From NCBI GenBank assembly GCA_964421015.1, contig CAYQUS010000003.1, positions 41,269 to 105,268 of the forward strand: DNA of 64,000 bases. The letters are read 5' to 3'. Made by a program: the position numbers and the translations under genes. The notes under the pieces were generated by a model. The model was given only the letters and a program-made list of their open reading frames with translations, did no database searches and was not told the origin of the DNA. Shown in pieces: positions 12,001 through 39,687 of this stretch (positions within the stretch are counted from its first letter, which is position 1; each line of letters begins with the position of its first letter). This DNA is from an uncultured Planctomycetia bacterium. Lineage in GTDB: Bacteria; Omnitrophota; Gorgyraeia; Tantalellales; Tantalellaceae.

Positions 12001-15000
12001 TGCCTATACGAAAATTCGTAAGGAACCGGCAACGTGGCATTTTGAGACAAAGGGTGAAATAGTGGAACAATGGCCTTCCCGTGGAGGAGACGATAATAGG
12101 TACGGTCCTTGGGTGGAGGATAGAACTTGGGAAGAAAAAGTTGTCGATAGTTACAAAGATGTTGAATACCCTGTTTTCACTAAGACTGCTGAACTCGTTT
12201 CTAACTCTGCTGAACTCGGGAAAGTCTTCGCCGAAACCAAAGCCAGTCTTGCGGTTAAAAGAGCACGTCAAAATGAATACCAGAAGATGTTTGATGTTTC
12301 AGGAGAAGATGAAAGTTTTAACGCATTAGGCAAAATATATGCGTTTTATGAGTTGTTCCCAGGGGCAGATTTTACTCTCGATAATATTTTCCATATCGAT
12401 GGATTTAGTGGACTCGAGAGCAGAGCCTTATTCTCAAAATTGGCAGGGCAAATTAACGACATTGAAAAGCTAAGAGCCATTGCTGTTCTCGTTCTTATGA
12501 GAGTTGAAGGGATAAATAGAGAACTAGTCGAAACTTTAGCGAATCAGGTTGAAGATATTGAAGACTTATATGTTTTGGAAAGCGTTCTTAGGGAGAATGT
12601 TTCCTTGTTGAGGTCGTCAGAAGTTCCTGTCTACCAGGGAATAACCGAAGAGGTTTATCTAAGAACCGATACAGTGGATGTAAAGCAGCATCTTGACTGG
12701 ATAGAGACAGCGAGTGTTCCAGTGTATGAAACTCGCCAAATCGACGATTTTGTGGGATACCGCACTGTAAACGAGTACGATTTTTCAAAACTTGAAGAAC
12801 TCGCAGCAAATACGGAAACATTGAACAGAGTCTTCGCCGAAACCAAAGTCAGGCTTGCGGATGAGAAAGGGTTACCTGCTGAAGAAGTTACAGCTCAGGC
12901 TCCTCTTACTACAGAAACAACTGGAATAGCGGAAATAGAATACACCTCTGAACAGGTTATAACTGACAAGCTTGCGGAAACCGCTCTCTCTATGGGGTAC
13001 GATTCAACTGTGGTAACAGAGCTTGTTGATAAGACGTTGCAGCGTACAGTAACGTATAACGAAGACGGCACGCCGAATTTCGGAAGGCTTGAGGCTCTTA
13101 TGGAAAACCCCATAGCTTTAGGAAGGGTTTTTGAAGTCTTGTCAGCCGACATCCACCCCATATCATGGCAGACATCGGCATGGGCGGCGGCGTTTTACGG
13201 GGCGCTTTCCGTTATTATAGGAATAGGTTCCGTTTCCGGGCTTTCGCTTGGCGGGAACTTTGTTCCGCTTATGGCCGGAGCTCTTGCTATAGTAGCGTCG
13301 ATATACGCCGTTCAGGCCGCGGATGTTTCTTACGGCGTTCTTGCCGGCGCGCCTTCGGCTCTTATATCGCCTTTTGCTAATGCCCTTCCGGCGGAAGAAG
13401 GCTACATAACATATGTAAGAAGCGGCAGGCTACATGTTAACGCCGAAGAAATGGCTAAGCGGCCCAAGGCGCTTCAGTGGCTGTACTATTCGCACGAATA
13501 TCTGCACCTTAAGGGAGTATATTCTCACGCGGCAGTTTACGGTCTTCAGGGTGTTCTAATGGCCGTTACGGCGGGCCTGGGAGTTATACTTGTTTCCACG
13601 GCCGCGGCAATGAGCCCGGCAGCGGTTTCAGGGGTAGGCATAATGGCCCTCGGGACATATTCGGCTTCGGGCCATGCCGAAACAGTCGGTAAACCCGAAA
13701 AAGTTAATGTTTTAAAGTCAAATAGCGTGCCGAACAGCGTATATAACGGTGTTGTATATAGGTATGATCCGAAAGAGGAGGCGCCTAAAGACGAAGAGTC
13801 TATGATGGCTTATCTTGAGGAAACGATGCTTGACTACGGCAGGCAGGGGATGGAAAGGTACTCAGGAAAGCTGTCCCAGGATAACATCAAGGACGAATTG
13901 ACCCATTTGAACGGTGTCAGGTCCTACATTATGAGCAGCACCGGTGATATGACGGTTGAGTATTTCATGATGATGGAAACATTCGGGAAGATCAAGACTG
14001 CCGAAGGTTCTGACATGCCGGTATATCAGCTGATGAATGTGCTGGCTGATGAGCAGAACTGGAGGGCCAGGGCTAAGATATACGCCAATAACGGTACTTA
14101 CGCCGACTTTAAGCAGATAGTTGACCTTTTCCGTAAAGCCGCGGAACAAATGGCTGAATCTTACAGGATAGATCCGTCGGACAGCGAGCTTGAAATAGAA
14201 AAACTCGCGGTAGTAGTTAGCGAACCCGGTTTTATATCTGAAGTTTCGGGCACTCCGGGCATGGCGGAACTGCTTGAGGGTGCTTTGCCGGATGTGGCAG
14301 AGATTATCAGGCAAGGGTATACGGCGAATTTCGCTTTGCGCAGGTGGCTGGAGACGCCCGGGAACGTCGATCTGACTCTTGCGGAAAAAGTTGTAAACAT
14401 GGTATCGTCCAGCCTTTCTGCGATGCATGACGAGGAGCTGGCAAGGTTCATGGAAGAGACCCTTCCCGGAGGAAAATACGCCGGCCGGCCCGTGATAATA
14501 GTAGCCGATAACTTCCTAGCTAGCGAAGAAGAGATAAGAATGCTTACCGAGAAGTTCGGCATAAAAGCGTATGTTTCGTCTAAGGGCGCCAACGAGCTTA
14601 CCGGTCATTACGCGGTAGTGGCCGGGGCGAGCGGTATGTCTATAGCCGCCGGGCTCGAAGAAAGTGTTCTTGCCGGGATAAACACCGGAGATTCATTGTC
14701 GTTCTTCGTGGAAGAACACGGTGAGGACGCGTATCTTCTTTTTACCAGGGAAGACGGCCGGGATTTCAACGAAGAGGCTAATTCCTGGATGCTCACGAGA
14801 ATGCTTAGCGTTACCGCTCTTCAGGACTACTATGCGGAGAGTTCGTCGGGTGACGTTAAACAGACCATAGACAGGGTAAAGTTCCCTGTATTCGGCAACA
14901 TAAACCTGCCTCTTTCTACGGACAGGGCGGTAGGCATGCTTGACAGCCTTATGGAGTCCGGGGCCGACGGCGTAGGGCTTGTAAGGACAGAGTATATGTA

Positions 15001-17329
15001 CGACGGTGTCTCGGCTCCCACCGAGGCTCAGCAGGTAGAGCTCTATTCCGCTCTTGCTGAAAAAGCCGGCGACAAGATAGTAACTTTCAGGACTTTCGAC
15101 AAAGTGGACGATAAAGAGTGTCCCGCTCTTCCCGTAGAGGACGGCAGACGGAGTTTTGATTATTACAGGACACCTGCCGGGAAAGAAGCTTTCACGGCGC
15201 AGTTAAGGGCGCTGTACAAAGCCGCTTTGAGACATGAAAATATCAGGATAATGTTCCCGATGGTAAAGGACATATCCGACATAGAGTTCATAGCTTCGGT
15301 AGCCAGGGAGAACGGCATGAGTCTCGACCGGGTGAGCCTGGGGATAATGATAGAGACCAGAGAACTTCTGGAAGATGGGAACGGTGATCTTTTCGGAGAG
15401 ACAGGCAGTGTTTCTCCCGTCAATATAAGCGCTCTGGCGCTTAAGGCGATACTGTCTAATCAGGCTGTTCCGATAAGTTTCGTCAGCGTGGGGAGTAACG
15501 ATCTTACCTCTGCCGTAAAAGGAAAACCGAGGACAGATATAACCGATGATGATTTCGACAAGGAGATGCTGGTGGTGCTAGAAGGTATAGCCATTGCCCT
15601 CAGACAGGAATATTACAGGAGGGTAGAGAGCGAAGATGATATGGCTGAACTTGAAGAAAGAGAGCCCAGGGCAATACAGCCTGTAACTATGGGTATATGC
15701 GGAGACGCGGCCAAGTTCGACATAACTTTCCTTTTCAGCCTGTACCTGTACAAGACCCATGGGGTGCTTCTCACACCGAGCGCCGTAAGTTCAGTTATTC
15801 CAAGAAGGAAAGCGCTTATTCCTTTTACCAACGCCGAAGGATGGGTAACGTCTTTCGACCACGGCTGGTGGAATCGTACGGAAGAAGAAATAGCCGGCAT
15901 GGTAAGAGCCAAGGTGGACAAGGTTATAGGCAAGATACGCAAGTCCCCTGGCTATATTGAGATGATAAGAAGAAAAGTCAGCGACAGGGTAGGTATGCGG
16001 AAGATGACCGGGGCTCTGGCGATGGCCGGTTTCGGCGGGGAAGGCCTGAAAGTTTTCGGAGAAAAGGTTTCCGAGCTCATGTACGGCTATGTTCCGGAGC
16101 ATCTTGATTCAGTGCTTCCGGCTATGGCCATACTTATACTTTTGGGCGCGCTTGCCTGGAAAGCTTTCTGGACCGCGGCGGATACTAAGAATGAAGCTTT
16201 GCTGGAAGAACAGCTGACGGAACTTTCCTTAAAGCCTTCCGGCCAGAGGAGATGGCCCTCTATGGTTCATGTTATAGGGGTCCAGACATCTATGACCCAG
16301 GCGGAACTTGATATGGAATTTCCGGGTTTCAAGGCCGGCGGGGTAGACATATTGGCCCTTCCGGAAGGGAAGACAAACGAAGAGAACCTGCTTTTACTCG
16401 AAGCCGCACGAAGAGAGCGCAATACCGTATGGTCAAGCTATGTGGACGCTTCGGCTCTTGAAGCCGCCGGCGGAATATCCAGTCTCGGCAGGGTGGCGCT
16501 TGATATGACGAGAGAAATAGAGAAAAGAGAGACCGAGAAGTTCCTTGAGGAAAATTCTCTTGAAGAAATAGAGTCGCTGCGGTCGGCTCTTGAAGGGATA
16601 CTGAAAGAAATGAATCTCCCGGCCATGCTTCCGGAAATCGGGCTTCTCAGCCTTTATAACCTGAGGATAACCGACAGGGCCAGATCCGGTATGCCAGGAT
16701 GGCTTGACGCGACCACGCAGTCTTACATCGAGCGTGAAGATAAGGAATCTCTCGTTCATGTTACCGTGAGTTCTCTGGCCGAAGTTAAGACGCAGGCCGA
16801 AGCTTTCAGGCTAAGAGATCCCAGGAAACTTAAGCTGAGAGTTACCCTTGCAGTCGGTGACGAAACAAGCGAAGACGAACTTGCGGCTATGAAGACCGGC
16901 AAGGCGGCTCTAATGAAGAGTATGGACGTGGACAAGCTTATAGGCGAGGGCGATCTTGAAATAGTAAGAAGGTCCGACATAAAAGCCGGTCTTACCGACG
17001 CTACAATGGCGGCCATACAGTCCGCCAGGAGCACGGGAGGCGACGTTATAAGCGTAGACAGGGTAGAGGATGCCGGCAACCAGGCTAACCAGAACCTGCC
17101 AAAAGGCGTTCTCGAAATGAGGTACAACCAGTACGCTACTGCCGACGTGTTCGACACGGCGCTTAGGGTGCTCGCAAGAGGCGGAGTGGTAGGAGATATC
17201 GCTTCAGCGATAGGCCTTGATCCGTTGACTAATGGAGTAATTATGTATCTCAGGGAGATCAAACCGGAAGATATGGGTACACTTAAAGCCGAGTTCGAAA
17301 GGTACAGAGAGATACTTACCAGAGCGTAA
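2..17329 (+). CDS. Giant (>=5775 aa, 5' end outside window) polytopic membrane multidomain protein. Beta-rich N-terminal region, acidic Thr/Glu/Lys low-complexity linker, many clustered TM helices, ComEA-like helix-hairpin-helix module, C-terminal PEP-utilizing-enzyme phospho-His-like and PEP/pyruvate-binding TIM-barrel domains
   Basis: Uninterrupted 17.3 kb ORF ending TAA 17327-17329. Translation shows 'INTATLEELQTIPGVGPVLAERILEYRQ..VSGIGEKKLESI' (HhH, nt ~11440-11625). 'GANELTGHYAVVAGASGM' lies at nt ~14585-14640. 'GLVRTEYMYDG..PTEAQQ..IVTFRTFD', 'IMFPMVKD' and 'VSVGSNDLTSAV' mark a PEP-utilizing TIM barrel (nt ~14900-15560). Hydrophobic helix clusters at nt ~6000-7800, 9890-10560, 10980-11860, 13150-13680. 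Followed by a palindromic terminator-like repeat. Confidence 0.8.
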   Translation: METLFKAFHYLFKFRDADLVVKDGMLYAKLRKPYQFSELETLNTGDTIVMSLADGKVRQIRIDTVLSENAVVSEGNLWKEFNYEPFAGKVDLGNISSVPAEGFESGVRSYGAGSEKLTVTEYSRDNWEFLKTSFTFINELGEDSVSFTMAETEDVQGLSDPQKTVWIDFHDTARTTRKYVGELEISPEGAKINPTVTDRPILIEDVTHPEGRHDLLSMKKFGIFDEKNPTEQKFFEMDKDGKMFRGVSLEFSDTFDHGIVVVYERVKDAAPGSDEIMMRKTEYVADGVRDFDEYLREYASSGNVSGLEWISEGVYGIREGLDIQGKKKEIWDTYEYRHMNGEYYTVTEVPGDGTDYGVETKSYIQKGRNVFGREYERSFTTLVRDSKVITEQSIQFLAPGEEYKDETGSQRTDFAGRVQTAVKMRPDEVTDIEVLTGAEKVAPGDKAELTRGAIEIPEASFEGIPEEERFVFRTESKEMRFIEGMPRVVKEETRITDSRGEILYTVTTNYRFAWDKGTMEKESTEILVYDNTADENGENKDEVRKYVVEYSPEYPAGRFMERGRYISRDKFLYLASEGKAVRKILNYVDGSEVEREVDLFRYVDRDHPSIDEVYETERWSDPAEDGGARETAVIRVSSMDKRGVSLGMTASDSRVIFTDNDGKETASVPFPQAEEATFERIESSGEIRSLDGALLGNIDLENGMVNVVFGGDQADGPGKVIVLPEGAYLGRSVVRRPVGLASDGKTVEFETITSSFGIYDITGKPYYKHTTEKYPEAEDKAEAHTIVKYNENDKTMSEWLYVIGVSSDSDKRSAELNNPVVSSRHALTRYHGLKDDFYQIELEEKDRIKRDALSGRYSTEDDYQTSYVYDKNGFASQRDSGTLPLASETKVFDPVTQSMKTIEENVYFYNEETGERFIVDVTGILPAEVDKNDPAAVLKYLDETGQTVTVFRTLMPIEMQFEAEQWRTTVSEKEGKISVNYTDPGASLELLRIKHPDSEHFGGTYITVLLSGKAGAYEVEGVFMGKGVHLFYGVAGKKRVREGEELPKDIVTIDPVTGQVLGVREDVLEGWKETRSVSFAYDKGDETVVLNIPGVMSSDELGIPNPDRGDGVFYLQKKVRMPDGQVAFVIAEFKVKLKEGQTYAEALDELAAKRNSLTLEIDFESAGNSLKDLGTLEYLYFPCHMGDDKAQLYQMKIEMNPDRTIGDVVTLNPMEDFKADTNRGWEFEYKEESAPGLTEISKTGTEISLQDVEILMDIAPAELLPREFSIWGEETMRWVKTPQPEGDVMVEYFKPGQTKAFKVTWEIGENEEAKALVEGALAGLPENSIFGKDADKKIKDVVYTFAKENNITDSALLAQGLERAIEMEKVFEEVLGRESGTLASSVSPESRPAMASSVLYWTGKLSVQKDASTGAVTGFSRIGRSLGNRAIQMKPAVVKAMQDLYTKYGSDAQKEGIAAFTTAGTGEELVVLDMAISLAATDITTDRAMKDPAQVISAADMLFDGESYDRAEQGILSDLRKAAVKEFQGILDGTIAQSLSVTIESFMKGKVLAEAENLVEAIQNKPADADESVEKGIEIWKKVVRTYYEAYGDILFSEFVDNRRKAPNMYAFHAQDLKSKVTEILEEAGMENLASEITPEIKVPEVKPEEAALSISLDEMGLNIRPEALTPKVILSENEDLNGKGAVYFYASNETSEEAPGTRNLAGKTVTVTGKMPYQADPDSPIVIALTDTNGNTMAATATVGEDGNLTAVFEKVPASEDFDGTSVVLMETRFAMASTTPPVWSVMGIMVAYMFASFMFMVVRKVRGYGKLLRLSKAGAELKAKTPIPMTGFIADFIRDLGYAWRSDRSFTGAAFKVFFIGLFNIFRGKPAEKKEETKKVKEEEKTETTATDTAREKASLQPLETTKDAEETAVPAATTEAVEEVAIEPAPVTEEEIQTEVDMELVHLGVKEMAHAIRGWVDDIKVDFRMIGIQQEEAGIFLPFMRSSEIWEFSDYAAKPKYSLSNITRGLSMVGLGLAIYGLAGFGGALTWIYPVALMLILPGFFNWLAVAKVSVPGSIGFVLMHTILPLFGMSHPAISVVFSAIFIALYVAAPFYKYLRAISDPNSYVEKQRGQLETLRSMVWIMQNGDESLQRAADWLRSHGDQGQKLEKEELANIADNKDLNLSSEAILYLKARSVWYSKERGKLGLTRKQVIERLELLARFNKNVLPHIKDLRRWRRSHDVGAGTSWIGAKVPGGELEELPEFSKELESTLKELDELVVSTPNEGSFRKDAPFYLLGAGMAMLAGGIGVIFTTGIVVPIVIGVIAVTVSFMLLVAGLGKIRESEMIMSPGRDMKKLWRDNFRIIYSTSSGHELKALALWKGLQEITAAISRETLVIKAEETLSRNRFVNIVQGSLNKMKTALTNVRDTAIVRGFFDSFHLSRNEEFVRKVHMLFNVVVFVLVISVVLQLATFTGLFAVKELANLVLAGEFLSFSEVFAKPFYVLEIGKAIFTSYELQSPFTAVILAFTQTAVFGTTVIMGLWLALGKFVFYFLGDNARHYPQEKVVTSRRVWLNVGIGAAAAIAFAVIPGGSWLAVIGRAVSAVFVGISVFRFFIMRTASTRFKAIVEQDKLLTKDSPMPRVTALTEAQWDEMKRESFDNFVDTVLSRYNAEEQRVILKANEVGKENLSDMEKMVYERTLGRGAEPSRSKYKNFDRASLEEEYKKLTTENLLNRMSGAGFENLKRALGLDCEDLKLWHIQSEDESIKFIANSIKDNETRKKNFENSRNAIKGLSPDVLRDIIDGDLLERRVVLMYDLLPKFTPWIVVVDGAKETPKLVNYLVGYRYPLQRIRIVFAGENWDNGTDDFVQKGKSNSSIPPQLIFRGMPVREDNLNEVDIKKLPREERKKMLMAWVQANHPYTKPGANTSVLDDSDGTSGIIYDAENTPHPLQPLEFILGVMDGVATVRRLSDKFTKAYASSEIGEEDNAAVSVKKASALLEKTLPEYGRALDEKDISDSLRFNIKQKGILKRQMRYFVKHNLKTLLEITEKDPKLFSTGMLFEYIKEQVKAGRSLLEDKEMRELLNLYIVLCNMPGYGEAATEYIKGTLTKDAFVKELIKGEFRRVNEPKNGQGRLAKITNALEFAGPDKGAGSQGSVAAFMYGEYASWYDPGWSGFMASQDTFKPLGGTTGYFCTEVIEEIDWQDQDVQTKLSFTAEENDIVKQHYVTKNKLLAIGAWDEFQVAEDYMLGFVTWWYGFNIAGFMSLTPENPAGFEAEVGYKFRPKQLSRWIKGYNIGLVVLTENWSNVSELWERKGWWGFFVFLVPTLSSAVNPLLFIAARFITQLWWIFFVPVETIRTFLVNITFMDAGSYIQGMLQATQLDTLLLNFQDSVVWFITENLNYLDWSLGAPIVVLPFALHAYFTLRGIFRGVDNRLGMERILAEHDELLEDAQKADPAVVKEVEDRIKAIKEGSLEEVPGLVSPKPFILAASALIGAFVTIIAMPFIVSSGVTFLAGVGVWVAVSLIISLGVNKLTRWYVDSAVKKKANKTPEEEAAEKEEKSIRAMAVRAGSANLFIAFYHATVYLPGNTMAWSEIISGGRTGYWWRTPRVVGQIAQVKKRQDRKFALGEAKIAEFPKPQKEDKVAEDEFIEAFKEKMTKDELIERDLEHTRLWTRLIYGWGFVGAMLLLVAYNFRMNLRDQFITSIVSPFMSGSAPTTYIYQLASSNPLIALGIVAGSIAMAGLLFAVSRSRGRSAVPEASRQETLTLEPRTEEEVIPETGEVKSEAPVAPKPKVPAVGIGIEVSEEEGALLETFETLEEIQAKVNINTATLEELQTIPGVGPVLAERILEYRQTNGDFESIEDLLKVSGIGEKKLESIREYVDIPLELPAASHAVPISNKVGIPIGSIAMLFGAAILASMSAGAEMTGDALPTKGARLFASISGVEIALVAGVIALLVYGAIKLRNYSKANALKLSYKGFSVPMSIAIPLSKLVRNSEDRAAVMDMINRTAYTKIRKEPATWHFETKGEIVEQWPSRGGDDNRYGPWVEDRTWEEKVVDSYKDVEYPVFTKTAELVSNSAELGKVFAETKASLAVKRARQNEYQKMFDVSGEDESFNALGKIYAFYELFPGADFTLDNIFHIDGFSGLESRALFSKLAGQINDIEKLRAIAVLVLMRVEGINRELVETLANQVEDIEDLYVLESVLRENVSLLRSSEVPVYQGITEEVYLRTDTVDVKQHLDWIETASVPVYETRQIDDFVGYRTVNEYDFSKLEELAANTETLNRVFAETKVRLADEKGLPAEEVTAQAPLTTETTGIAEIEYTSEQVITDKLAETALSMGYDSTVVTELVDKTLQRTVTYNEDGTPNFGRLEALMENPIALGRVFEVLSADIHPISWQTSAWAAAFYGALSVIIGIGSVSGLSLGGNFVPLMAGALAIVASIYAVQAADVSYGVLAGAPSALISPFANALPAEEGYITYVRSGRLHVNAEEMAKRPKALQWLYYSHEYLHLKGVYSHAAVYGLQGVLMAVTAGLGVILVSTAAAMSPAAVSGVGIMALGTYSASGHAETVGKPEKVNVLKSNSVPNSVYNGVVYRYDPKEEAPKDEESMMAYLEETMLDYGRQGMERYSGKLSQDNIKDELTHLNGVRSYIMSSTGDMTVEYFMMMETFGKIKTAEGSDMPVYQLMNVLADEQNWRARAKIYANNGTYADFKQIVDLFRKAAEQMAESYRIDPSDSELEIEKLAVVVSEPGFISEVSGTPGMAELLEGALPDVAEIIRQGYTANFALRRWLETPGNVDLTLAEKVVNMVSSSLSAMHDEELARFMEETLPGGKYAGRPVIIVADNFLASEEEIRMLTEKFGIKAYVSSKGANELTGHYAVVAGASGMSIAAGLEESVLAGINTGDSLSFFVEEHGEDAYLLFTREDGRDFNEEANSWMLTRMLSVTALQDYYAESSSGDVKQTIDRVKFPVFGNINLPLSTDRAVGMLDSLMESGADGVGLVRTEYMYDGVSAPTEAQQVELYSALAEKAGDKIVTFRTFDKVDDKECPALPVEDGRRSFDYYRTPAGKEAFTAQLRALYKAALRHENIRIMFPMVKDISDIEFIASVARENGMSLDRVSLGIMIETRELLEDGNGDLFGETGSVSPVNISALALKAILSNQAVPISFVSVGSNDLTSAVKGKPRTDITDDDFDKEMLVVLEGIAIALRQEYYRRVESEDDMAELEEREPRAIQPVTMGICGDAAKFDITFLFSLYLYKTHGVLLTPSAVSSVIPRRKALIPFTNAEGWVTSFDHGWWNRTEEEIAGMVRAKVDKVIGKIRKSPGYIEMIRRKVSDRVGMRKMTGALAMAGFGGEGLKVFGEKVSELMYGYVPEHLDSVLPAMAILILLGALAWKAFWTAADTKNEALLEEQLTELSLKPSGQRRWPSMVHVIGVQTSMTQAELDMEFPGFKAGGVDILALPEGKTNEENLLLLEAARRERNTVWSSYVDASALEAAGGISSLGRVALDMTREIEKRETEKFLEENSLEEIESLRSALEGILKEMNLPAMLPEIGLLSLYNLRITDRARSGMPGWLDATTQSYIEREDKESLVHVTVSSLAEVKTQAEAFRLRDPRKLKLRVTLAVGDETSEDELAAMKTGKAALMKSMDVDKLIGEGDLEIVRRSDIKAGLTDATMAAIQSARSTGGDVISVDRVEDAGNQANQNLPKGVLEMRYNQYATADVFDTALRVLARGGVVGDIASAIGLDPLTNGVIMYLREIKPEDMGTLKAEFERYREILTRA

Positions 17330-17340
17330 CGCATACGAAT

Positions 17341-17383
17341 ACACATTAGTGCCAGGCACCTATGGTGCCTGGCACTAATGTGT
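17341..17383. repeat. 43-nt perfect palindrome (REP-like / terminator-like), copy 1, 12 nt after the ORF1 stop
   Basis: acacattagtgccaggcacc-tat-ggtgcctggcactaatgtgt, with 20-bp arms. Confidence 0.9.
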
Positions 17384-17643
17384 GATAAGCGTCATTCTGA
17401 TGCCCCGATAGGGGCTGAAGAATCTAGAGGCATTAGATCCTTCACTTCGTTCAGGATGACGGAGAGAAGTCAGCTTAAAGAAGCCACCTTGCGCGCGGCA
17501 AGTATTTCCCGGCCGCCTCAGGTGGTTTCGTGGTCTCTGGGATAGAAAAAGGTTTTCAAAAAATGGATCCTGTTGAATATCAGGTACTTGTTGATCTCAA
17601 TAAAGCGCTTTTACGAGTATTGCAGGCAGCTTAATTAACGAAT

Positions 17644-17685
17644 ACACATTGGTGCCAGGCACCATAGGTGCCTGGCACCAATGTG
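17644..17685. repeat. Palindrome copy 2 (variant, loop inverted: ..caccATAggtg..)
   Basis: acacattggtgccaggcacc-ata-ggtgcctggcaccaatgtg. Shares 5' flank cgaatac with copy 1 and 3' flank aaaaagttag with copy 3. Confidence 0.85.
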
Positions 17686-17734
17686 ATAAAAAGTTAGATT
17701 CCATGTTAGTTATGAAAAATCTTGTTATTTTTCA

Positions 17735-17763
17735 TTGAACCTATGTTCGCCTGATAGTACAAT
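17735..17763 (+). promoter_or_regulatory. Sigma70-type promoter of the 4131 aa giant gene
   Basis: TTGAAC (17735-17740), 17-nt spacer, TACAAT (17758-17763), ~40 nt upstream of ATG 17802. Confidence 0.5.
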
Positions 17764-17801: not shown

Positions 17802-20800
17802 ATGCATAAAAATTCACCGTTTTTGCGGTTGGTGGCAGTATTTTTATCTTTGGTCTTTTTTCTTCAGGAAACAGGAGTAGCGGCTGCGGCTACGCAAGTC
17901 CCCGGCGCGTCTGTTCCAACGGTAAAAGTGTCTCCCGAGGCGTTTACCGAACCTGAAATAAAACTTCCTCTTTCCGTTGCTCAGACCGAGAGCTGTTTTT
18001 TCGGTTGCGGCGGAGAAACCATAATCAATATACAGGACGACCATTCGTCTCTTTCCAGGCAGTATTCAATAGTGAACGTTCTGGGAGAGCTTTCATCTAA
18101 CTACAATATCAACGTTGTGGCTATCGAAGGAGGAAGGGGGTATATAGACACCTCTCTACTTAAAAGCCTTCCCGACCGGACCGTAAAAGAGAAAACCGCT
18201 GATTATCTCATGAAGCAAGGGACGATATCGGCCGGCGAGTTTTTCTCGGTAATGTCAGAGGGAGATGTGGCTCTCTACGGCGCCGAAGAAAATGAGCTTT
18301 ACCAGAAGAATCTGGAGCAATTTCGGGCGATATTTTTGAATAATGCCGGAAATAGAAGGATACTGTCGGTACTCATCGAAGAGCTGAAACGAAAAGAGAA
18401 GAGAGTATATTCCGAAGATCTTTGGAGGTTCGTGTATCGCTCGCGCCTTCACGCGGAGGGCCGGCTGAGCCTGGAATCATATTGGGATTTTCTTGTTAAT
18501 GAGCTGGGCCTTGCCGGGGGAAAGATCTCGGATTATCCCGTAATATCAAGTTTTGTAGGGACAGTGGAACTTGAGCGTGAAATAGATTTCGAGAAAGCCA
18601 CAGCGGAGAGAAAACAGCTTATAGACAGGATAATGGAGACGTCTCCTGCTGAAGCGGCAGAGGAACTTGTGGCGAGATCTGTAGATTTTGAGAAAGGAAA
18701 GGTCGATGAAGCGGGGTACCACGAATGGCTCCTGAAGTTTGCCGTTTCCCGGGGAGAGGAACTTTCCGGATATGCCGAGCTTGTTAAATTTTCCAGCTAC
18801 TCTTCATCCTACAGGGAACTTGATGTAACCGCCCTCCATAGGGAACTTGCAACCGCCGAGAAAGAAATTTTTAACAGTCTTTGCGCCGCAAAAGAAGAGT
18901 ATGATCTTTTTCAGGCGGTATCTTCAGCGGAGAAGCTCAAACGGCTTTTCGAGATACGGCTTTCGGCCGATGACGTTGACTCTCTCAAGGAGCTGGCGGA
19001 GGGGCTTTCAGGTAAAAGCATGACGGCGTGGTTGGGCGAGGACGCCGCTGGAACGGCTTCCGGCAAGCTCAGGAAGATCCTTCCTGGGCTTGATAAGCTG
19101 GCGTCAGACGCCAAAGAGGCCATGAAGTTCTACGCGGTGGCCAGAGAGCGCGAGAAGAAAATGATAGCCAACACGGTAAGGGCCATGCGTAACGAGGGTA
19201 AAAGGGCCGCGGCCCTTATATCAGGAGGATACCACTCGTCGGGGCTATCCGGAATGATGAGGGAAAAAGGGCTGAGCTACCTGGTCCTTATGCCGTCCGC
19301 GCAGGGAAATGTGGACAGGTCTTACGTGGCGGTCCTTACAAGGAAAACCGGCCCGTACACGGAACTTGTTAAGAGCGGCTCTTATGAACTGGCGCTTGAA
19401 GCCTATTTCGATTCGGCGGATCTGGATTCATTCGAAAAGATGCTGGCCTTTATAGCGGCGGAGAACGTTATGTCCGGCAAGACACCCATGGACATAGAGA
19501 GGGAGAAAAAGGAGTGGATAGCCCGGCTTAAGGCTGAGCGTGAAACAATGCCCGAGAGAAGGGCCAGACTTTCCGAGCTTGTGGATATAGAGGCTCTTGA
19601 AGAAAGGCTTTCAAGCATTAAGGTGCTTCAGTCATCCGGGGATGAGTGCGAAGTTTCCATAGCCGGAAGGCTTTACCTTGTGGCGGGGGGGGAGGTCTCT
19701 CTTCTGGAAAAGGCCGCCAGGATGCCCGAAAAAAAGACAGATATGAACGTTTTTCTGCCGGCTCTGAAAAAAACTTACAAATTGCCAGGCCAGGCCGCTT
19801 TTTATTCTTCCGGAAGCCTGCTGGGAGAGATAGCCCTGAACTGGGCCGCGACAAGGGATTTCAAGAACGCCGCCGATTCCTTAAGGAAAACGGCGAGAGC
19901 CCGGAAAAAGAACCCCAGCATACTTGAGGCGGCTCTATGGAACATAAATGAGGCCGCCAAGATGATGAAAATGGCTCCTGAGATAAAGGAGATAATAGAT
20001 TCCCCCGAAAAAGTCACGGAAGTAAATTTCACGGTGGGGCTTGATGACGGCACGAGCGTGGAGATATGGGGTTTCAGGGCCTTGCATAACGGATCGCGCG
20101 GAGCGGGAAAGGGCGGGCTCAGGTGGCTTGTGGCTAAGGATGAAACTCCCGAAGACGCTATGAAGGCCGCTGTCGGGCTGGCTACTCTTATGAGCATAAA
20201 AAATTCCGGCGTAGGTATACCTTACGGCGGCGGTAAAGGCGATATTTTTGTTCCGGACAGGAAATATACCGACAGTGATAAAGCCCGGATAGTAAGAGCC
20301 TTCTCACGGGAGCTTACCCTGAAAGAAGCGGTAGGAACTTTTCAGGATGTTCCCGCGCCCGATAAAGGGACCGACGCTCGCATGATGGCCTGGTTCCTTG
20401 ACGAGCATATCCGCACACTCCTTGAGATGGGAAAGATACACGATAAGCTTCTCCAGGAAGAGCTGAGAAAAAATCTGGCGGATACCGATCCCGGTGAGCT
20501 TGTTCAGTCCGACGAGAAAACACCTTACCTGGATATTTACATCGATGTTCTTGAGAACGATGACACGGGCGTTTTGAGAGGAGTGGAGCTGGGAGTTATA
20601 ACCGGTAAGCCTTTGAGGAAGGGAAAGAAGGTTCAGCTTGGGTCTCTCGGCCGCACAAAAGCCACGGGGTTCGGCGGGTTCATAGCCTTCAGGTCAGTTC
20701 TGGAAAAGTTCTCCGCCATGAAAGATATGGACGGCGATGTAATAGCCGGAACACTTAACCCCTCAGTGAGGCGCGTACTCAAAAAGAATATAAGCGACAT

Positions 20801-23800
20801 GACGGTTGCGGTACAGGGAACGGGCAATGTAGGAGAATATAACGCGTGGGAATTTTTCAGAGCCGGCGCCAGAGTGACAATGCTGGAAGACTGGCATGAA
20901 GGGACGAATTGGACGCTGTACGGCGATAAAGGCATCGACCTCGAAAAGCTTAACTCGGCTTTGGAGCGGCTTCCCGACGGCAGATGGGCGCCCCTTGCCA
21001 CGCTGCCGGAGAAATTTCTAAGAGAGAACGGTTACGAGCTTAAAAAAGGGACAAGCGAGTTCTGGGATACTTATAGTGACGTAAAGGTTCCTGCGGCAAC
21101 GGAGAACCAGATAACCTATTCCAACGCCGAGGATATTAACTGCGCCATAGTGCTGGAACTTGCCAATAATCCCACTACTCCCGAGGCGGACGCTATACTC
21201 GCGAAAAGAGGCCTTCTTGTTATCCCGGATGTGGTCGCTAACGCGGGGGGCGTAACAGTTTCTTATTTTGAGTGGCTGCAGAACATAGAGGGGAGATACT
21301 GGAGCGACATAAGTGTCGACATGATGCTTGAAGAAAGGATGGAGACGGAGATCAGGGATGTTATGGCCGTGGCTCAGAGGTTTTCCTCGGAGTTTCGGGA
21401 AGAGGGCGGTTCCGCCGGGCGCAATGTTTTCAGGCAGGCGGCGTATATTCTGAGCCTGGCCAGGATAGCCGACGCCGAGCTCTCGAGAAAACCTGAGCTG
21501 ATGGTACAGCTGACGGGTGACAACAGGGAACCTTACAGGTTCCGCGGAAGTCTGGGGCTTGTGCCCGAGACGGTAGAGGCTCTTAATGATGTTTCTTCCG
21601 ACGTGGAAAAATTCAGGGACCTTGCGGATTTTTGCGAGGCGCGCCATGAGAGAGAGATAAGAGGCATAGTCGCGGACGTGGAAAAGAAGTTCGCCGGCGC
21701 TAAAGGCGGGTTCGTTCTGGTCTCGGGTCCGGTTACAAGCGGAAAGATGGCCGTATCCGACAGAATAACCGCGGGGCTCATCGAGAACGGGTTAAAAGCC
21801 AGGAAAATAGATATCGACGAAATGATATTCCCCAAAGAAAGGTTCTGGAGGCAGAGCGGGCTTGATGAAAGCAGGGTGCATGAACTCGCTATAGCAGAGA
21901 TAACGAATATTCTTGAAGATCTTATGTCGCGCGTTAGCTCGGAGATATTTGTTCTGGAAGGAAGTTACGTGCTGGACGAGGCGTTCCTCGACAGGGAAAA
22001 GGGCCTGCTGAAAAACGAGAATACTTACGGGATATTCACCAACATGGCCCCGGCAATGAAAATGTCGGGTAACGTTCCCCTTACATCTCTGGACATGAGG
22101 CTCATACGGCACATACTTACTTTTCAGAGGGTTTTCGGCTCTTCCCCGATAGACATAATAAGAGAATGGCCGTTGACGAGGGAAAACAATCTTAAGTACG
22201 TGTACCCGTCGTGGAAGAACGCCGACACTACGTTCAACAGCTACCTGCCGTATGAATTAGCCGTTCTTAAAAGCCCTGTTACAAGGGCCCTGCGCGACGC
22301 CATGGAAAACGCCTCTAACGACCTCGAGAAGTCCACAATAGAAAGGCTTCTTGGCATACTTTCCGGAGTTGAAGACGCGCCCGGGACAGCTGGCCTTGAC
22401 GTGAATTCGGTAATAAGGCAGTTCATAGGCGCTCCCTCGTACCTTGATGAGATGGAAGCGGATGATGTGTTGTCGATGTACCGAGGCGAATACGTGGAGA
22501 ACCACGCCAGGAGGGTCACGGATATCGGCGCCGTCCTGGCCGAAGAGATGGGAATAAGGAGAACCGACCCCGGGCTTTTTAACGATATCCTCTCGGCCTG
22601 CGCCGCCCATGATTTCGGAAGCCCCGGATCTCCCATAGACCCGGCTGATTTCGCGCGTATACGGACAAGCCTGGCTTCAAGGGGAGTAGATGTGCCAGAA
22701 AAAACATCCAGGGACGAAAACTGGCATGCCTCTCTTTTTGAGCGTTTCAGCGCGGCCAAGCCTGGGGAATTTTCCGCTGAAGAGGTTGATCTTGCTCTTG
22801 ATATGTTCCAGGGGCCGGACTCCCTGAGGCGCCTGGCCATGCGCGGCGCCGTGCCCTCCAGGCCGGTCAGGACCGCTATACTTTTTCATCACCACGCCGG
22901 AGAGTTGGAGACTTATCTTTCCGGAAAAGACTGGCCGGAGAAGGAAAAGGAAAGGACGCGCTTGATCCTTTCGGTGCTTGTAGCCGCGGATGTCATAGAG
23001 AACGGCATGAATCTGTTCAAAAAAATATTTTTCAGGAACACCTACGTCGTTGAGACCCCGGATGAGACAATGAGATTCCTGGACCCGGCAAGAAGCGGTA
23101 TCCCAAGGACAGAAGCGATAGAGGCGTACAAACGAATTGTCGCTGAAAGCCCCGAAAAGCTCCGTGGTATAAGCGAAAGGGCGTTCGATATATCACCTCA
23201 GGAAGAAGAATTCCTTCTAAAGGCCGAAAAGGTCTTGATAGATAGAGGGGAGATTCACGGAGCCGGGCCCGAGAGAGGAGGGACGACGGCCGTAATAAAA
23301 ACCCTGAAAAATATTTCGGGTAAAAAAACGCCTTTCGGGTATTATGCCGTTAGCGTGGCTCCCAGGGTGGAAGAAAGACTTTTCTTTCTTGTTCCGGCAG
23401 TTCTCGGTTTCGCGCTTGACGTTGCGTTTTCGGGAGGCGGGGTTATAACACTTTCATCAATGGTAACAGCCAGGGCGCTTTTTCTGGTTTCGCACGGCAA
23501 GTTTGCTTTTTCAGGGTTTTTAACGAGAGGCCACGCGCCCTCGAGGGTAGCTATAGCCGGGGTTTTAGGTGTTCTCCCTCTTGCCGCCGTTTCCTGGCTG
23601 GGCCTTCCTTTGTTCCTGGCGCTCGCCGCGGGCGGAGTACTGCTGCCGGTTTCATATTTTTCCGTAAAAAGGTATCACTCCTTCATGAACAATTTGGCGC
23701 TACGGAGCGGGAATCTTCCCGCTGTTATGGGGCATTCTGGCGACATCTTTCTTCTGGGCGACGCAGACGCCGATAACATAATAAAAGGCATAGCTTCACA

Positions 23801-26800
23801 TCATGTGCTTGTAAAGGCGGCATCAACCGAGGGGATAACTCCCGCTGAATATTCCAGATGGGTAGATGTAGACGATGAGGCTTCTCTGCTGAGAGGATTC
23901 AGGGCCCTGGCCGCGATGGGAGCCATGGAGAACGGCATAGAAGCGGCCGACGGAGCCAAGGCTTACCGGATCACTTCCTCCGGCATGGAACTATTGAAGG
24001 CCACCTGGAAAAATAATCTTAAAGAGTGGCTTGAGGCCATGTCGTCCCTGCCCGATAATTCGCCCGAAAAATCAAGGCTTTTCCAGGAGCTCAGAGAAAG
24101 CCGGTTTCTTGGTTTTACCAGAGGCAAAGAGTATCCGGCTGAGAGACTTGAAGTGCTGAAAGAGAACCGGACCAGGGTGCTGGACGCCATATTTATAGTC
24201 CTTACAGGCATGCTTGACGGGTCGGTTTCTTACAAAAGGAGCGATATACTTTTTTCCACCATGTACATTACAGCTCTTCTGGACATCGCCGAAACCAGCG
24301 CCGATGAGGCGTTCCTGGAAGATATACTGGAGAGGCTGATGGGGCTTCCCAACGCCACGGACGCCGAAGCCCAGGGGGAGATGCAAAAGTTTTTCATGCA
24401 TACTATATCTTCTTATCCCGGTAAAGCCAAGACGCTTGTTTTTCACCTTATGGCTGGTTTGCAGGAGAACGGGAATGTTATCAAGGAAACGGACAATCCT
24501 CTTTTTGATCTTATGGACCTTCTGCATAAAGCCGGCGGCGGCGACTTCTACTATTTTCTCCGAAGAGTATCGGGGATGTATTTCATGGACAATTCGGGCC
24601 AGGTAAACGTGGGGGTCGACCACCCCTTGAGGGTAAGGACCCGAAGCGGCAGTTACGGGCTTGATATAGACGGAGTTGTAAGGGACTCCATACACAATAA
24701 TCTCGGTGTTTATGTTCTTGGGCTTCTTGAGCGGATGCTGGAATACTACCGCACCGGGAACGTTGAGATCCTGGGGGACAAGGATTACGAGGTAGACGCT
24801 TTCAGGAACGATGCCGTGAAGGGGCTCGATGCCTGCTTTCCGGAAGAAGGAACAATAGACGTCAGAAGGAACAGGCCCTTGTACCCGGATACATGGCACG
24901 AAGCGGCCGTTCGGATATTTCACCATCTTGAGGGACGTCTGGGAGAAGATGCCGGAGCCGAAGGCGCAACGAGATATGAAAAGCTGAGGAATATATCCGA
25001 CGAAGGTCTGCAGAAGATCTATGACGCGGTAAACGAGGAGCTCGGCCCGGGGTTCCCGAAGATGGAGGTCAATGATACCGGGTACGGGTTCTCGGGATAT
25101 TTTTACGCGTACAGGGAACTTAGCCGCAGGTACAAGAGAGCGGATTCCGAAGAAGACCTTAAAGGTAACCTGAGGAGGCTCTCAGCGGTTTACCGGAACG
25201 TCAGGAATATAATCGGCCCCAGCGGCATTGCCGACGCCGGGAAAGTAGAAGGGGAAGCGTATTCCCCGGAAAAGGAGCTTTCCAGGATACTCGAGGTAAA
25301 GTCGGCTATAAGGGGAAAAATACTCGATATCGAGGCCGAGCCTTACGACAGGACCGCCGTGGAGGAAATATTTACCGAGGATTGGGGCGTGGATTACACT
25401 GGTAACGCCTACGGCGGAGCCTGGGTTAAGGATGAGCTTTTGGGGCTCTACATGGCCGATCACGGTGTCTCTCTGCTCTTGGCCAGGGTTATTGAAAAAA
25501 TGGAAAGTACCCTGGTGAAAGGTATAAATCAGGACAATATTGAAGAGGCTCTGAGATACCTGAAAGTCCTGGCCGAGATAAATAATGTTAACGGTCTCAT
25601 GCCGAGGTCTTTTGTCGATAAAGTCGATACCCTTATTGAGGAGAAGGCGATTGACGCTACGGTCGCAAGGGACCTTGTGAGCCTTCTTGAGGACGAGTAC
25701 ATAGAGAACGAGCGGTATATTACCCACAATATGAAGGTGTACATAGAGAGGATACTCGATATTAAAAAAGTGTTCGGAACGGAAGCCCGCAACAGCGAGA
25801 TCAATAGGCGCATATCTTCCTTATTAAGGTCCGAGAGAGAATACTACGCTCTTTTCAGCCTTCTAAGAAGGATAGGAGTTTATCTTGAGGGGATGGAAGG
25901 TGTTCTGGGAACGGAAAGGGCGGGTGTGGAAGAGCTGCCTTACACGCTATTCGGGCCGGGAACGGAAAAAGATGTTCTCGACAGCGCTCTGGGCCAGGGC
26001 AGGTACAGGCTTTCCGGCAAGGGGATAGAGCTTGTGAGGATGGCCAGGGAGGGGCTACCGGTGCCGGAGGGAATAATAGTCCCGGCTACGTTCGACGTTA
26101 CCCGCACGGTCAACTCTGCCGTTTCTGCCGTGTCCGCTTGGCCGCACGGGGATGAGGTTTTGGGTTCTTCCGAGCGGCCACTTGTTGTGTCGGTGCGTTC
26201 CGGAGGGTATTTTTCAATGCCGGGCCAGCTCCCGACAATAGTTAACGTAGGGCTTTCGAGAAGCACCATAGATGGATTCATGAAAGTTCTTTCGGAAAAA
26301 CACGGACTAGGCGAAGACGAGGCCGCGTGGACGGCATGGGATTCCTATGCCAGGTTCCTGAGAAGTTACGCCGGCGAGGTCATGAAAATAAGCGAGGAAG
26401 AATTTATCCGGGAAGACGAGAGAGTTTTTTCTCAGTACGGTGTTTCAGGCGGGATTGAACTGGGATGGGAAGATAAACGCGCTTTAGCGGAAAGGTACGA
26501 GAATCTTATAGAGAGACTTCGCCCGGGAGAGTTTCCCGCTTCTCCCGAAGAACAGTTCGAAAAAAGCGTTGAGGCGGTCAAGTCCGCCTGGGAAGGTACG
26601 GAAAAATACAGGGAGAACATCAGGTTGAACGGGCACTGGCCGGGTACCGCCGTTATAGTGCAAAAGATGGTCTATGGCAACATCAGAAGATCTTCAGGTG
26701 CCGGCGTAATAAATTCAAGGAACGTTAACGTCAGGGAAACCGGAATAAAGGGTGATTTTCTTTTCTCTGCCCAGGGAGAAGACATAGCCCAGCACCGCAA

Positions 26801-29800
26801 GGCGGATCTGGTAGACATAGATGATATCGAAGGTGATCCGGAGTGGAAAAGAGACCTTGTCCGGATAGCACAAGGAATAGATAACGCGATAGGAACTATC
26901 GCCGAGATAGAGTTTACGGTGGAAATGGGTAAACTCTATATACTGCAGATAAGGAACGCCAGGGTTGAAAGCGTGTCGGAAGATTACCACTTTACACCTT
27001 CCTCCCAGATGCTTCTTGCCCCGCCCGCCGAAGTAGTGCCTTCCGGAGGAGGAGCCTACCGGGGAATGGTCTTCAATATGAGATCAGGAGATATTGACGA
27101 AACTAAAATAGGCGAAATGTACAGCCTGGCACGGGCAAAAGGATGCGACGGAATAATAGTTCTGAGCGACGATCTGGACCCCAAGAAAATGGACAGCCTC
27201 ATGACCAGGGATGCCGAAGACGGGGGCCGGTACAAGATAGGCGGAATAATCACAAGTTCCGGAGGCAGGCTTTCGCACGCGGCAAGTATAGCGCGCAACA
27301 ACGGGATAACCGCGATAGTCGGGGTTAAGGGGATGACTTTTTCTCCCCGGGGAGGAGCGTCCCTCGCCGGCCGGGAGATAAATAACGGCGACATAATATC
27401 TATATCGGGTAAAAAAGGCTACATAATGAGAGGCCTTATTCCGGTCAGCGCAAGAGAGCTCATTGACGGCCGGTACGAGATGAGCATGTCTCCCATAGAT
27501 TATGTAAAACTTCTAAGGACGAGAGGCCAGGTGCTTACCGTTCTTAACGATCTTTTATGCGAGGACTGCGACGACAAGGGCCAGGAATACAAGAGCAAGG
27601 TCGCCGGGTTCATAAACCTTGTTCTTACCAACAGGCGCGAGATCCTTGAAACAAGGGCTCCGGCTGTCTTAAAAATAATGAAAGAGTATCTGGAAGAAGG
27701 CCGCAGGATAGAGGACATAAGGCGCGTTTTGAGCGAAGAATTGTCCAGAAAAACCAAAGAGGGAGGCGCGAGGGTTACTGAGGAGATGCTTTCCCTGGTG
27801 GTAAATCAGCTGACATCCAGGGACGCCTTCAGGAAAATGGGGATAAACCCGGTATCGGTGGAAAGGATAGTGCTGGCAGATCGCAAGATCGAGATACAGG
27901 AGGGAAGGGTATCTTTTGAAATAGATGTGGTTTACAGGCTTCCCGGTGATTCAGGAACTGAGAAAGTACCTTTAAGGGTTGTCCTGTATAAGAGAGGATA
28001 CGGCCTTGAGGCGCAGGGCATATTTGAAGGTACGGCCGTGGCGGAAAGGATAGTACAGCTCTACCGCGACGGTCTTCTGACCGACTCACGCAGAGAAAGT
28101 TTCGCCGGGCTCGGGCTTGGCGCGGATCTTATACACAAAGCCCATTCAGAGGCTTTAGGAGAAAAAAAGAGGTCGGCCGAGATACTGGCGGAGAGGATAA
28201 GAGAGAACAATATCCCTGAACCCGCGCTGATGGACCTTATAGCCGGTATAGATGCTCAGAATATGGAGACTTTTTTCAGAAGATGCCAGGCCATGGATAA
28301 CCCATTCTCTTTCGAGAGGATATTATTCCGGTCGGTGGACAGCGAGAAGTATGTAGCCGTAAAGATACGCCCGGTAGATTCGGCGCCGGATATAAGGAAA
28401 TTTTCCGCGGCCGATGCTGTGGTGGGCGGAAGGCTGGGCGGAGCTAGGCTAAGGTCGGAGGACGTTCTCAGGATACGAAAAGATACCATTAAAGCCCTTT
28501 TAAGCGCCTACGACAACAGGATAGAGATATACAAGACGCTCTCCAGGCATTTGGGTGTACCGGCCTATTACAGCAGCATGACTTTCGACGAGATGCGTGA
28601 AAATCTGCGCGGTATAGATGTCGCGCGTATAGACAGCTCAAAACACAGACTTCTTAACGATCTGCTGGAGCTTAAGGGAGGATTTGACTCCTCGGATATC
28701 GAAAAAAGTTTTGTGCGCGCCGGCACGGTAAAGAGGTTCCCTCTCGACGTGGAACTTAAGGACCTTATACTTGTTCCTTCAGATACGGCGGCCGGATACT
28801 CTCCAAAGATACTCAGGTTCGGTGATTTTTTCGAAAGATGCTCCGAAAATACAGTTATAGCTCATCTTCAGGAAAACCTGGGATTCAGCTACGACGATAT
28901 TTTCGAGTCTATAACGGAACTTTACAGCAGGGAAGACGCCGTAAGGTTCATGAAAGAGGCTTACAGGAGAGAACAGCCGGGTTCCGAGATGTTTTACGAA
29001 CTGCAGGAACGGATAGAGGAGACTTTGTGCGAAACAGCGCTTTCGGTCGGGCTCCCGGGAGCCGTGTTCGGGGCTCTTTCCGCCGAGGACCTTATAGAGA
29101 CCATAGAGGCGAACAACGGAGTGAACCTGGTGCCTGTTACAACGGGGGATGACGGTTATATCAAAGAGGCGCTCTCATCAGGGATAGGCCCTGGAAGAGG
29201 AGTGGCCGTTCTCATGGATTCCACGGCGTTCCCGGCGGATATTTCCTCTGAAAGCGGCATGGACGAAGCGATTTCTATCATAGATGGTTTTTGCCAAAGG
29301 GTAAAACTGGACATTACCCCAGGCCCCGGACAGCGGGAAATGGAGTTTGACTCTGTCACGGCAGTGACGGAAAGGGAAGAGTCGGTCCGCGTTGTTTTCA
29401 GGTCTCTCCCCGAGGGAAGATCCTACGATCTTGGTAACAAGAGCCTGCGTCAAATAGTTAAAAGCCAGTCCGTTATGGAAGAGCTATACGATTCTGACCA
29501 GATAGCTTCTCTTCAGCCTGTAATGCCGCGGGAAGCCGAGCAGGGTAAGGGAAGGTCATACCTTGTGCATTTTGCCGACGGCGAGGAGATAGTGGAAGGC
29601 GCAGGGCCCATCATAGTTCCTCCCGGTCTTGAGATAGCCAAAAGACGGAGGGAACAGGGGGTTATCGGCCGAAGCGACGTTCTTTGCCGGGACAAGTTCT
29701 TTGTTGTTGTACCCAAGGGCATTTCGAAGTCTGATTTTAAGAAATACCTAATGGAACTTTGGATGCTGGATGGTGTCGTGAACGATTCTGAAGTAGTAAT

Positions 29801-39678: not shown

Positions 39679-39687
39679 GGATATAAA

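Follow-up and report, generated by a model that had tools for sequence, protein, structure and literature searches.

Three giant genes and two putative phosphohistidine cassettes

The 64,000-nucleotide stretch of contig CAYQUS010000003.1 analyzed here (hereafter the window) is a segment of a bacterial chromosome in which the list of open reading frames (ORFs) places three giant genes in tandem, all on the forward strand. We refer to them as p1 (giant protein 1; 2..17329, at least 5775 amino acids (aa), with its 5' end beyond the left edge of the window), p2 (giant protein 2; 17802..30197, 4131 aa) and p3 (30547..39678, 3043 aa). All three are multi-enzyme giant membrane proteins, in which divergent enzyme cassettes are strung on a membrane-anchored polypeptide, a kind of protein that has already been described. 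Our subject is a pair of such cassettes: one in the C-terminal part of p1 that resembles Enzyme I (EI) of the phosphotransferase system (PTS), which uses phosphoenolpyruvate (PEP), and one in p2 that resembles the ATP-dependent half of pyruvate phosphate dikinase (PPDK). An earlier note on this DNA had taken them for the matching parts of one PPDK or PEP synthase (PEPS) distributed over two polypeptides. The nine peptides on which that proposal was built all lie in the two ORFs where it had placed them, starting in p1 at 14975 (GLVRTEYMYDG), 15077 (IVTFRTFD), 15248 (IMFPMV), 15341 (GIMIETRELLED) and 15479 (FVSVGSNDLTSAV), and in p2 at 26013 (SGKGIELVRMAREGLPVPEG), 26658 (VQKMVYGN), 26766 (SAQGEDIAQH) and 27261 (GGRLSHAASIARNNGITAIVG).

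The cassette of p1 (aa 4565-5345; 13694..16036) was recognized through its homologs, through an AlphaFold2 (AF2) model searched with Foldseek, and through a family profile compared with the PDB. It opens with an all-helical domain (aa ~4598-4820; 13793..14461) that is conserved in relatives and modelled by AF2 as about 11 helices, with predicted local distance difference test (pLDDT) values of about 60-86. This is followed by an EI-type phospho-His (swivel) domain (14492..14746), for which PF00391 was not reported in the Pfam scan of p1. A phospho-His-like segment ahead of the barrel had already been suspected, and it is confirmed by the alignment of TIGR01417 (PTS_I_fam) positions 155-431 with p1 aa ~4831-5119 and by the candidate phospho-His, H4869 (codon 14606-14608), which is invariant across the eight-member family alignment. 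The PEP/pyruvate-binding TIM barrel predicted for the p1 C-terminus (aa ~4953-5290; 14858..15871) is likewise borne out by PF02896 (PEP-utilizers_C; 88.6 bits, cut-off 22.8), by a match to the EI C-domain in a PDB sequence search (E 8e-18) and by invariant columns. Right behind the cassette, a hydropathy scan places a transmembrane (TM)-like helix (aa 5371-5389; 16112..16168), and such scanning gives about 16-25 TM-like hydrophobic segments in p1. The protein ends in a C-terminal domain (aa 5424-5775; 16271..17326) that is 80% identical to the related protein P0326 and similar to the C-termini of P0327, P0337, P0338 and P0365. Elsewhere in p1, a ComEA-type helix-hairpin-helix DNA-binding domain (HHH_3, 83.5 bits; aa 3812-3872, 11435-11617) lies between TM-like segments.

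The conserved residues of the barrel are R4995, R5030, D5033, E5118, N5166, D5167, R5177 and C5233 (codon 15698-15700), and the elements that are invariant in the eight-sequence alignment comprise RTE, RTFDK..DKEC, the Glu of IMIE, ND, the Arg and the Cys of CGD. From the order and spacing of the motifs, together with general knowledge of the enzyme, we take R4995, R5030, E5118, N5166, D5167, R5177 and C5233 to be the equivalents of R296, R332, E431, N454, D455, R465 and C502 in E. coli numbering. All EI catalytic positions, the His and the Cys included, are invariant although the aligned homologs are only 28-32% identical to p1. Because this invariance extends to a Cys in a protein whose Cys content is only 0.1%, it points to selection on the active site, and the conserved positions argue for an active PEP site in the p1 cassette.

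The structural comparison gives a similar assignment. The AF2 model of aa 4565-5345 has a mean pLDDT of 67, rising for most blocks of the barrel core to the 80s-90s; in Foldseek it matches full-length EI best (E ~1e-15, ~650 aligned columns), and the TM score between the model and the EI C-domain is 0.78-0.80. PF05524, the N-terminal HPr-binding subdomain of EI, gave no Pfam match in p1, and AF2 gives a ~220-aa helical domain. That the conserved stretch of ~250 aa preceding the His domain might hide an ATP-grasp was considered and ruled out, the model being all-helical there, and no ATP-grasp was detected in the 5775 aa of p1 inside the window. Scored against TIGR01417, p1 reaches 79.3 bits, below the cut-off of 341.7.

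The second cassette, in p2, consists of a PPDK-type ATP-grasp domain (aa 2736-3054; 26007..26963) and a PPDK-type mobile phospho-His domain (aa 3117-3245; 27150..27536). Together, aa 2734-3245 match residues 15-539 of C. symbiosum PPDK at ~30% identity (E 1e-51, PDB sequence search). Both domains stand as the earlier note described them: Pfam recovers PF01326 (PPDK_N; 47.2 bits, cut-off 27) and PF00391 (45.6 bits, cut-off 23.1), and with PF02896 in p1 all three families exceed their thresholds. With a profile of 120 PPDKs, p2 is matched solely at profile positions 19-339 (196 bits) and 438-537, and further matches were obtained to TIGR01828 (E 1e-66; 226 bits, below the cut-off of 843) and to NCBIfam PRK05878, a short PPDK of 534 aa (1e-44). 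The ATP-grasp residues of p2 are K2740, R2799, E3035 (Asp in PPDK), E3037, Q3049 and R3051, while the candidate phospho-His, H3159, lies in GGRLSHAAS (compare the GGxTSH motif of PPDK, with H455) and is encoded at 27276-27278, the codon originally proposed. The equivalents of PPDK K22, R92, E323, Q335, R337 and H455 are kept, with catalytic roles that we assume from general PPDK knowledge. Catalytic residues are thus conserved in both modules, the replacement of D321 by Glu in p2 being the sole change.

Behind the His domain, p2 continues with a region of ~630 aa (27537..29420) that has no profile match and no recognized fold, and ends in a C-terminal domain (aa 3874-4131; 29421..30194) that is 38% identical to the C-terminus of P0329 and 25% identical to the C-terminus of P0328. 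A cryptic TIM barrel was sought after aa 3245 with Pfam, the 120-sequence PPDK profile, a 13-sequence EI-cassette profile, phmmer and the PDB, and none of them gave a match. In an AF2 model of aa 2700-3880 the region after the His domain is mostly helical and without beta/alpha alternation; the mean pLDDT of this model is 47, and owing to this low value it was not used for a fold search. With no barrel in p2 and no ATP-grasp in the windowed part of p1, the parts are distributed over two polypeptides as originally described, save that p1 runs out of the window at its left edge. As to topology, p2 has an N-terminal signal-peptide-like segment and, in the hydropathy scan, a TM cluster at aa ~1860-1939 that is ambiguous between 2 and 3 segments, with which the PPDK half may lie on either side of the membrane.

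Two further regions of p2 carry recognizable sequence. Its first 515 aa (17802-19346) and those of p3 (30547-32091) form a common N-terminal module, 26% identical, that starts with the signal peptide and matches no Pfam family. The module is also found free-standing (~520-560 aa, with a conserved IQDAHCNYE) in Omnitrophota, Elusimicrobia and Ratteibacteria, and some proteins combine it with domains of PFK (PF00365) or UDP-glucose pyrophosphorylase (PF01704). At aa 735-1227 (20004-21482), p2 contains a complete Glu/Leu/Phe/Val dehydrogenase (PF02812 + PF00208, 170 bits); located between the signal peptide and the first TM cluster, it would by simple topology be extracytoplasmic, which would be odd for an NAD(P)-dependent enzyme.

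Recurrence of the cassettes and their possible relationship

The EI-like cassette recurs: at least 19 proteins, large or giant, contain it, and those with a named source are from Omnitrophota. When p1 aa 4801-5775 served as the query of an exhaustive HMMER search, the matches at the top were about a dozen proteins, 941-7326 aa in length and 29-36% identical over the matching stretches; ordinary ~570-aa Enzyme I, matched over EI residues ~145-435, ranked below them. A metagenome scan added four further giant loci (L014-L017). Cassette homologs in other large or giant proteins are 28-36% identical to p1. The conserved unit spans about 750-780 aa and consists of a ~250-aa region (helical in AF2), the His domain, the barrel and a helical tail; in several relatives it is followed by TM segments, and it also occurs in proteins of less than 1000 aa (P0331, P0334 and P0342). 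HPr (PF00381) comes after the cassette in three relatives, directly behind it in P0329 (GLHARP) and in P0328, a protein with a pair of EI-like modules, and at a distance of ~340 aa in L014. PPDK_N was absent, by Pfam or precomputed Pfam, in 17 of the 18 relatives checked.

The sole carrier of PPDK_N in cis, P0340 (L011 25-22005; 7326 aa), is also the closest relative of p1 that we found (45% identity over 2150 aa). Its domain order is GDPD, NAGPA, the EI-like cassette (aa ~4720-5520), a His-like segment (~aa 6118, SSRGKGHARR) and PPDK_N (aa 6214-6547), a permuted arrangement with all parts in cis. The ATP-grasp of this protein, which lies ~750 aa downstream of the barrel with the His-like segment ahead of it, is like that of PEPS or glucan-water dikinase (GWD), escapes detection with the PPDK profile, and no similarity links it to p2. 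In another relative, P0336 (4741 aa), the cassette accompanies uridine kinase/PRK, nucleoside diphosphate kinase, cytidylate kinase and methyltransferase domains, which hints that it can sit among nucleotide-phosphorylating enzymes.

For the PPDK half of p2, a homology search with aa 2401-3500 returned ordinary PPDKs only, at ~30% identity. The database used gave no match longer than ~1650 aa, and the relatives of 2900-7300 aa came only from other collections, so that its lack of giant matches is uninformative. A scan of the same half against genomes, viral contigs and metagenomes gave no relative except an ordinary Rickettsiales PPDK. Look-ups by exact sequence, made for p2 and for two of the genes downstream, were without a match.

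Profile comparisons place the two cassettes apart. The profile of the p1 cassette family matches the EI C-domain in the PDB at 4e-36, PEPS at 7e-9 and PPDK at 8e-5, and the 120-sequence PPDK profile gives the p1 barrel 3 bits (E 0.006). Judged by sequence, the barrel in p1 is of EI type and the ATP half in p2 is of PPDK type, two different subfamilies. Since each half has its own phospho-His domain, neither needs that of the other.

The boundary between the two genes bears on the same question. The C-terminal tail of p1 (...ERYREILTRA) also ends P0326, which is 80% identical, and P0337, with close matches in P0338 (...REILTRA) and P0340 (...REVLTRA), and p2 has a C-terminal family tail of its own (...YELYREEVLIKA). 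On the other side of the boundary, p2 opens with a signal-peptide-like segment, and one is likewise found at the start of p3 and of the free-standing proteins homologous to the N-terminal module. Because p1 has this conserved tail and p2 a signal peptide, the p1/p2 boundary is ancestral and not the product of a single gene recently broken. A tail of the form ...P.I.PID...E...Y...L..A-COOH (examples are ERYREILTRA, ERYVREVLVKA and YIEAIAVIRTAA) ends almost all of these proteins, including p1 (~17150-17326), p2 (~30020-30194), p3 (~39500-39675) and ~20 relatives, and may serve them in common as a C-terminal signal for sorting or assembly. The C-terminal domain common to p2, P0328 and P0329 was considered as a dedicated phospho-acceptor and rejected, as the same tail ends nearly all such proteins.

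Given the different subfamilies, the two His domains, the self-contained recurrent cassette and the ancestral boundary, the part of the earlier proposal that made p1 and p2 the matching halves of one PPDK or PEPS is unsupported, and a split PPDK is the less likely reading. We lean towards regarding the modules of p1 and p2 as two autonomous phosphohistidine cassettes rather than one dikinase cut in two. In the first, PEP would bind the TIM barrel, with Mg2+ on E5118 and D5167, the phosphate held by R4995, R5030, R5177 and N5166, and C5233 as a putative proton donor; it would phosphorylate the cassette's own swivel His4869 with release of pyruvate, as Enzyme I does, and the phosphoryl group would then pass to an HPr-like or other acceptor. 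In the second, ATP (with Pi) on the ATP-grasp domain would phosphorylate the cassette's own His3159, giving AMP and PPi as in the first partial reactions of PPDK. Lacking a barrel in cis, this cassette may hand its phosphoryl group to some acceptor, possibly the ~630-aa region behind the His domain. By analogy, barrel-less enzymes made of PPDK_N and a mobile domain, such as rifampicin phosphotransferase and GWD, transfer the phosphoryl group to an acceptor other than pyruvate.

The same parts could in principle work together as a dikinase in trans. The ATP-grasp of p2 would load His3159, and that His domain, or in a variant the His domain of p1 after His-to-His transfer, would dock on the p1 barrel, such that the membrane-anchored p1 and p2 interconvert PEP + AMP + PPi and pyruvate + ATP + Pi. 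Each of the three domain types is indeed found with intact catalytic residues, the two genes are adjacent and co-oriented, P0340 unites a PPDK_N ATP-grasp with an EI-like cassette and a His-like segment on a single polypeptide, and because the barrels of EI and PPDK are homologous, as are their His domains, docking across subfamilies is conceivable. Nevertheless, we consider a trans-acting dikinase improbable, given that its halves come from different subfamilies, that a His domain in each half leaves no phospho-carrier wanting, and that the EI-like cassette goes without PPDK_N in all relatives checked except P0340 and is fused to HPr in three. Even the cis combination in P0340 is weakened as proof of coupling, as its ATP-grasp is of another type and, unlike that of p2, stands behind a His-like segment. 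By the crude hydropathy scan the TM parity is ambiguous, and the two modules may face different sides of the membrane. Finally, PPDK_N is listed among the 20 most frequent domains of Omnitrophota giants in West-Roberts 2023 (bioRxiv 10.1101/2023.11.21.568195), which also mentions PGM/PMM and other glycolytic domains; with so common a domain, a chance adjacency is likely.

We see just as little probability in a membrane-anchored phosphohistidine relay of Omnitrophota giants, in which the EI-like cassette and the barrel-less PPDK half would exchange ATP- and PEP-derived phosphoryl groups in trans between neighboring giants. If true, this would be a PPDK-like or PTS-like device for coupling energy or signals on the giant proteins of a predatory or episymbiotic bacterium. 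The more general suggestion of a repurposed phosphorelay, also made in the earlier note, finds some support in the EI and HPr fusions of the relatives.

A slightly better, though still small, chance can be given to the giants being polyproteins, from which proteases would cut a free EI-like enzyme of ~780 aa and a free half-PPDK of ~500-1400 aa, either soluble or membrane-tethered. Cleavage by C39/S8 peptidase domains is proposed for such giants in West-Roberts 2023, and TM segments bound the cassettes in the proteins studied here. In addition, p3 holds an in-frame copy of two separate genes located downstream of it (labelled p4 and p5), and the EI-like cassette is also encoded in the short proteins mentioned above, so that cassettes exist both free and embedded. 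However, neither SecA-DEAD nor C39 or S8 peptidase domains, nor any other peptidase domain, were detected in the windowed parts of p1, p2 and p3, and processing would leave the proposed chemistry unchanged. A last possibility is that both modules are non-catalytic relics, i.e., degenerate structural or binding modules, with conventional enzymes elsewhere in the genome doing the chemistry. Their scores do fall far under the equivalog cut-offs (79 against 342 bits for TIGR01417; 226 against 843 bits for TIGR01828), Pfam covers only part of each profile, both modules contain insertions, and D321 of PPDK is a Glu in p2. Yet each catalytic position tested is conserved, including a Cys in a Cys-poor protein and across eight homologs that are distant from p1, and degeneration therefore appears unlikely, the least probable of the explanations weighed here.

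Several observations weigh against the view that p1 and p2 carry two autonomous cassettes. An ATP-grasp and His cassette adjoining a His and barrel cassette is what a dikinase acting in trans would need, and the EI-like cassette does share one polypeptide with PPDK_N in P0340, which makes some functional link conceivable. The AF2 confidence is low over the p1 His domain (pLDDT about 30-37). No HPr-like sequence was found in any frame of the 64-kb window, which offers neither cassette an acceptor of this or another kind. Homology search and locus scans yielded no p2 orthologue, and the signal peptide of p2 could place its domains on the outer side of the membrane, an unlikely setting for chemistry that depends on ATP.

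Neighboring genes and intergenic elements

In the 472 bp between p1 and p2, a ~41-bp perfect palindrome occurs twice (17338-17383 and 17640-17690), there is a weak sigma-70-like site (17735-17763), and a Shine-Dalgarno-like AAGGCGGAG lies upstream of the p2 ATG. Further copies of the palindrome (ACACATTrGTGCCAGGCACC-TAT-GGTGCCTGGCACyAATGTGT) are located at 39685-39733, ~58002-58040 and ~60141-60179, with half sites near 57859 and 60310. They occupy intergenic spots, two of them directly behind the stop codons of giant genes, and the 13-mer core has 22 matches at up to two mismatches, compared with 0.8 expected by chance. The palindrome looks like a REP-like element or a terminator.

Downstream of p3 follow p4 (564 aa) and p5 (948 aa), which overlap by 17 nt (41683-41699), and then a mannan-utilization cluster encoding ABC permeases, GH113 enzymes, a ROK protein and a solute-binding protein. 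p5 is a fusion of PMM/PGM and mannose-6-phosphate isomerase (PMI) that is conserved across Omnitrophota, with the GH113 mannanase/ABC transporter cluster as its neighbor. The best matches of p5 (57-69% identity) are in metagenome-assembled genomes named Candidatus Omnitrophota, three metagenome loci (L002, L005 and L007) are syntenic with the window, and we assign the window to a Candidatus Omnitrophota chromosome. Compared with the ~1070-1250-aa protein of relatives (L005 371-4123; L007 10001-13210), p3 has an in-frame insertion at aa 936-2669, which is a copy of the downstream p4 and p5 pair (42% identical); L002 encodes a similar version of 3321 aa. p3 is a concrete case of a giant ORF enlarged by taking up a duplicated gene pair.

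Two RNA genes complete the annotation, a tRNA-Leu (58555-58641) and a tmRNA (59609-59989; Rfam 158.7 bits). The tag that ARAGORN predicts for the latter is unusual, with the end ...SALAY; reading in frame from the usual GCA resume codon would give a tag of ~35 aa.

Comparison with described giants and known phosphotransfer systems

Omnitrophota giants are a recognized open problem with respect to the activity, the membrane side and the cleavage of their embedded enzyme domains. What this locus provides is a pair of small cassettes, well defined and open to testing, whose active sites are intact: one is an EI-like PEP:His module, the other an ATP:His half-dikinase. It also defines a conserved family of EI-like cassettes with HPr fused downstream in three relatives. 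It points to phosphohistidine transfer as one activity of the giants and offers concrete constructs to biochemists; it reveals no new enzymatic principle. West-Roberts 2023 (10.1101/2023.11.21.568195) leaves the topology of the giants unresolved and regards proteolytic processing as possible. A 2026 preprint (10.64898/2026.06.07.730766) describes a "multi-enzyme metabolic cluster" class of giants, membrane proteins for the most part, in which a signal peptide may be present or absent. The occurrence of PPDK_N in Omnitrophota giants is already published, and the window is another example of that kind; no description of an EI-like cassette with fused HPr, or of a barrel-less PPDK module, was seen in the passages of either source that were consulted.

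Among known systems, PTS Enzyme I (PtsI; TIGR01417; PF05524 + PF00391 + PF02896) shares with p1 a His swivel domain followed by a PEP-binding TIM barrel, the presumed equivalents of H189, R296, R332, E431, N454, D455, R465 and C502, the best structural match, which is full-length EI, and relatives with HPr fused downstream. It differs in that the identity of p1 to it is only about 20-25%, that the helical N-domain of p1 is larger (~250 aa) and without a PF05524 match, that the p1 barrel has insertions, and that the module is set between TM segments of a membrane protein of at least 5775 aa, with no HPr in the window. Nor is the phylum known for a sugar PTS.

The similarity of p2 to PPDK (TIGR01828) is confined to aa 2736-3245, where the ATP-grasp and the central His domain keep the catalytic Lys, Arg, Glu, Gln, Arg and His. 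Unlike PPDK, p2 has no PEP/pyruvate barrel after the His domain, its linker region is shortened, and the module starts only at aa 2736 of a 4131-aa protein with a signal peptide. The layout of an ATP-grasp and a swivel His is also that of the barrel-less proteins with PPDK_N and a mobile domain, namely PRK05878-type short PPDKs (of which mycobacterial Rv1127c is an example), rifampicin phosphotransferase and GWD. In these, the acceptor domain or substrate is known or bounded, whereas the next ~630 aa of p2 have no recognizable fold, and GWD differs from p2 in its domain order.

The last comparison is with the giants of Omnitrophota themselves ("Archaeovorins" in West-Roberts 2023; "multi-enzyme metabolic clusters" in the 2026 preprint). 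While West-Roberts 2023 reports giants of >30 kaa, p1-p3 are 3-6 kaa long, p1 being incomplete. The likeness lies in the phylum, in the tandem genes, in the many TM segments and in the divergent metabolic enzyme domains, including PPDK_N and PGM/PMM, that p1, p2 and p3 have in common with them.

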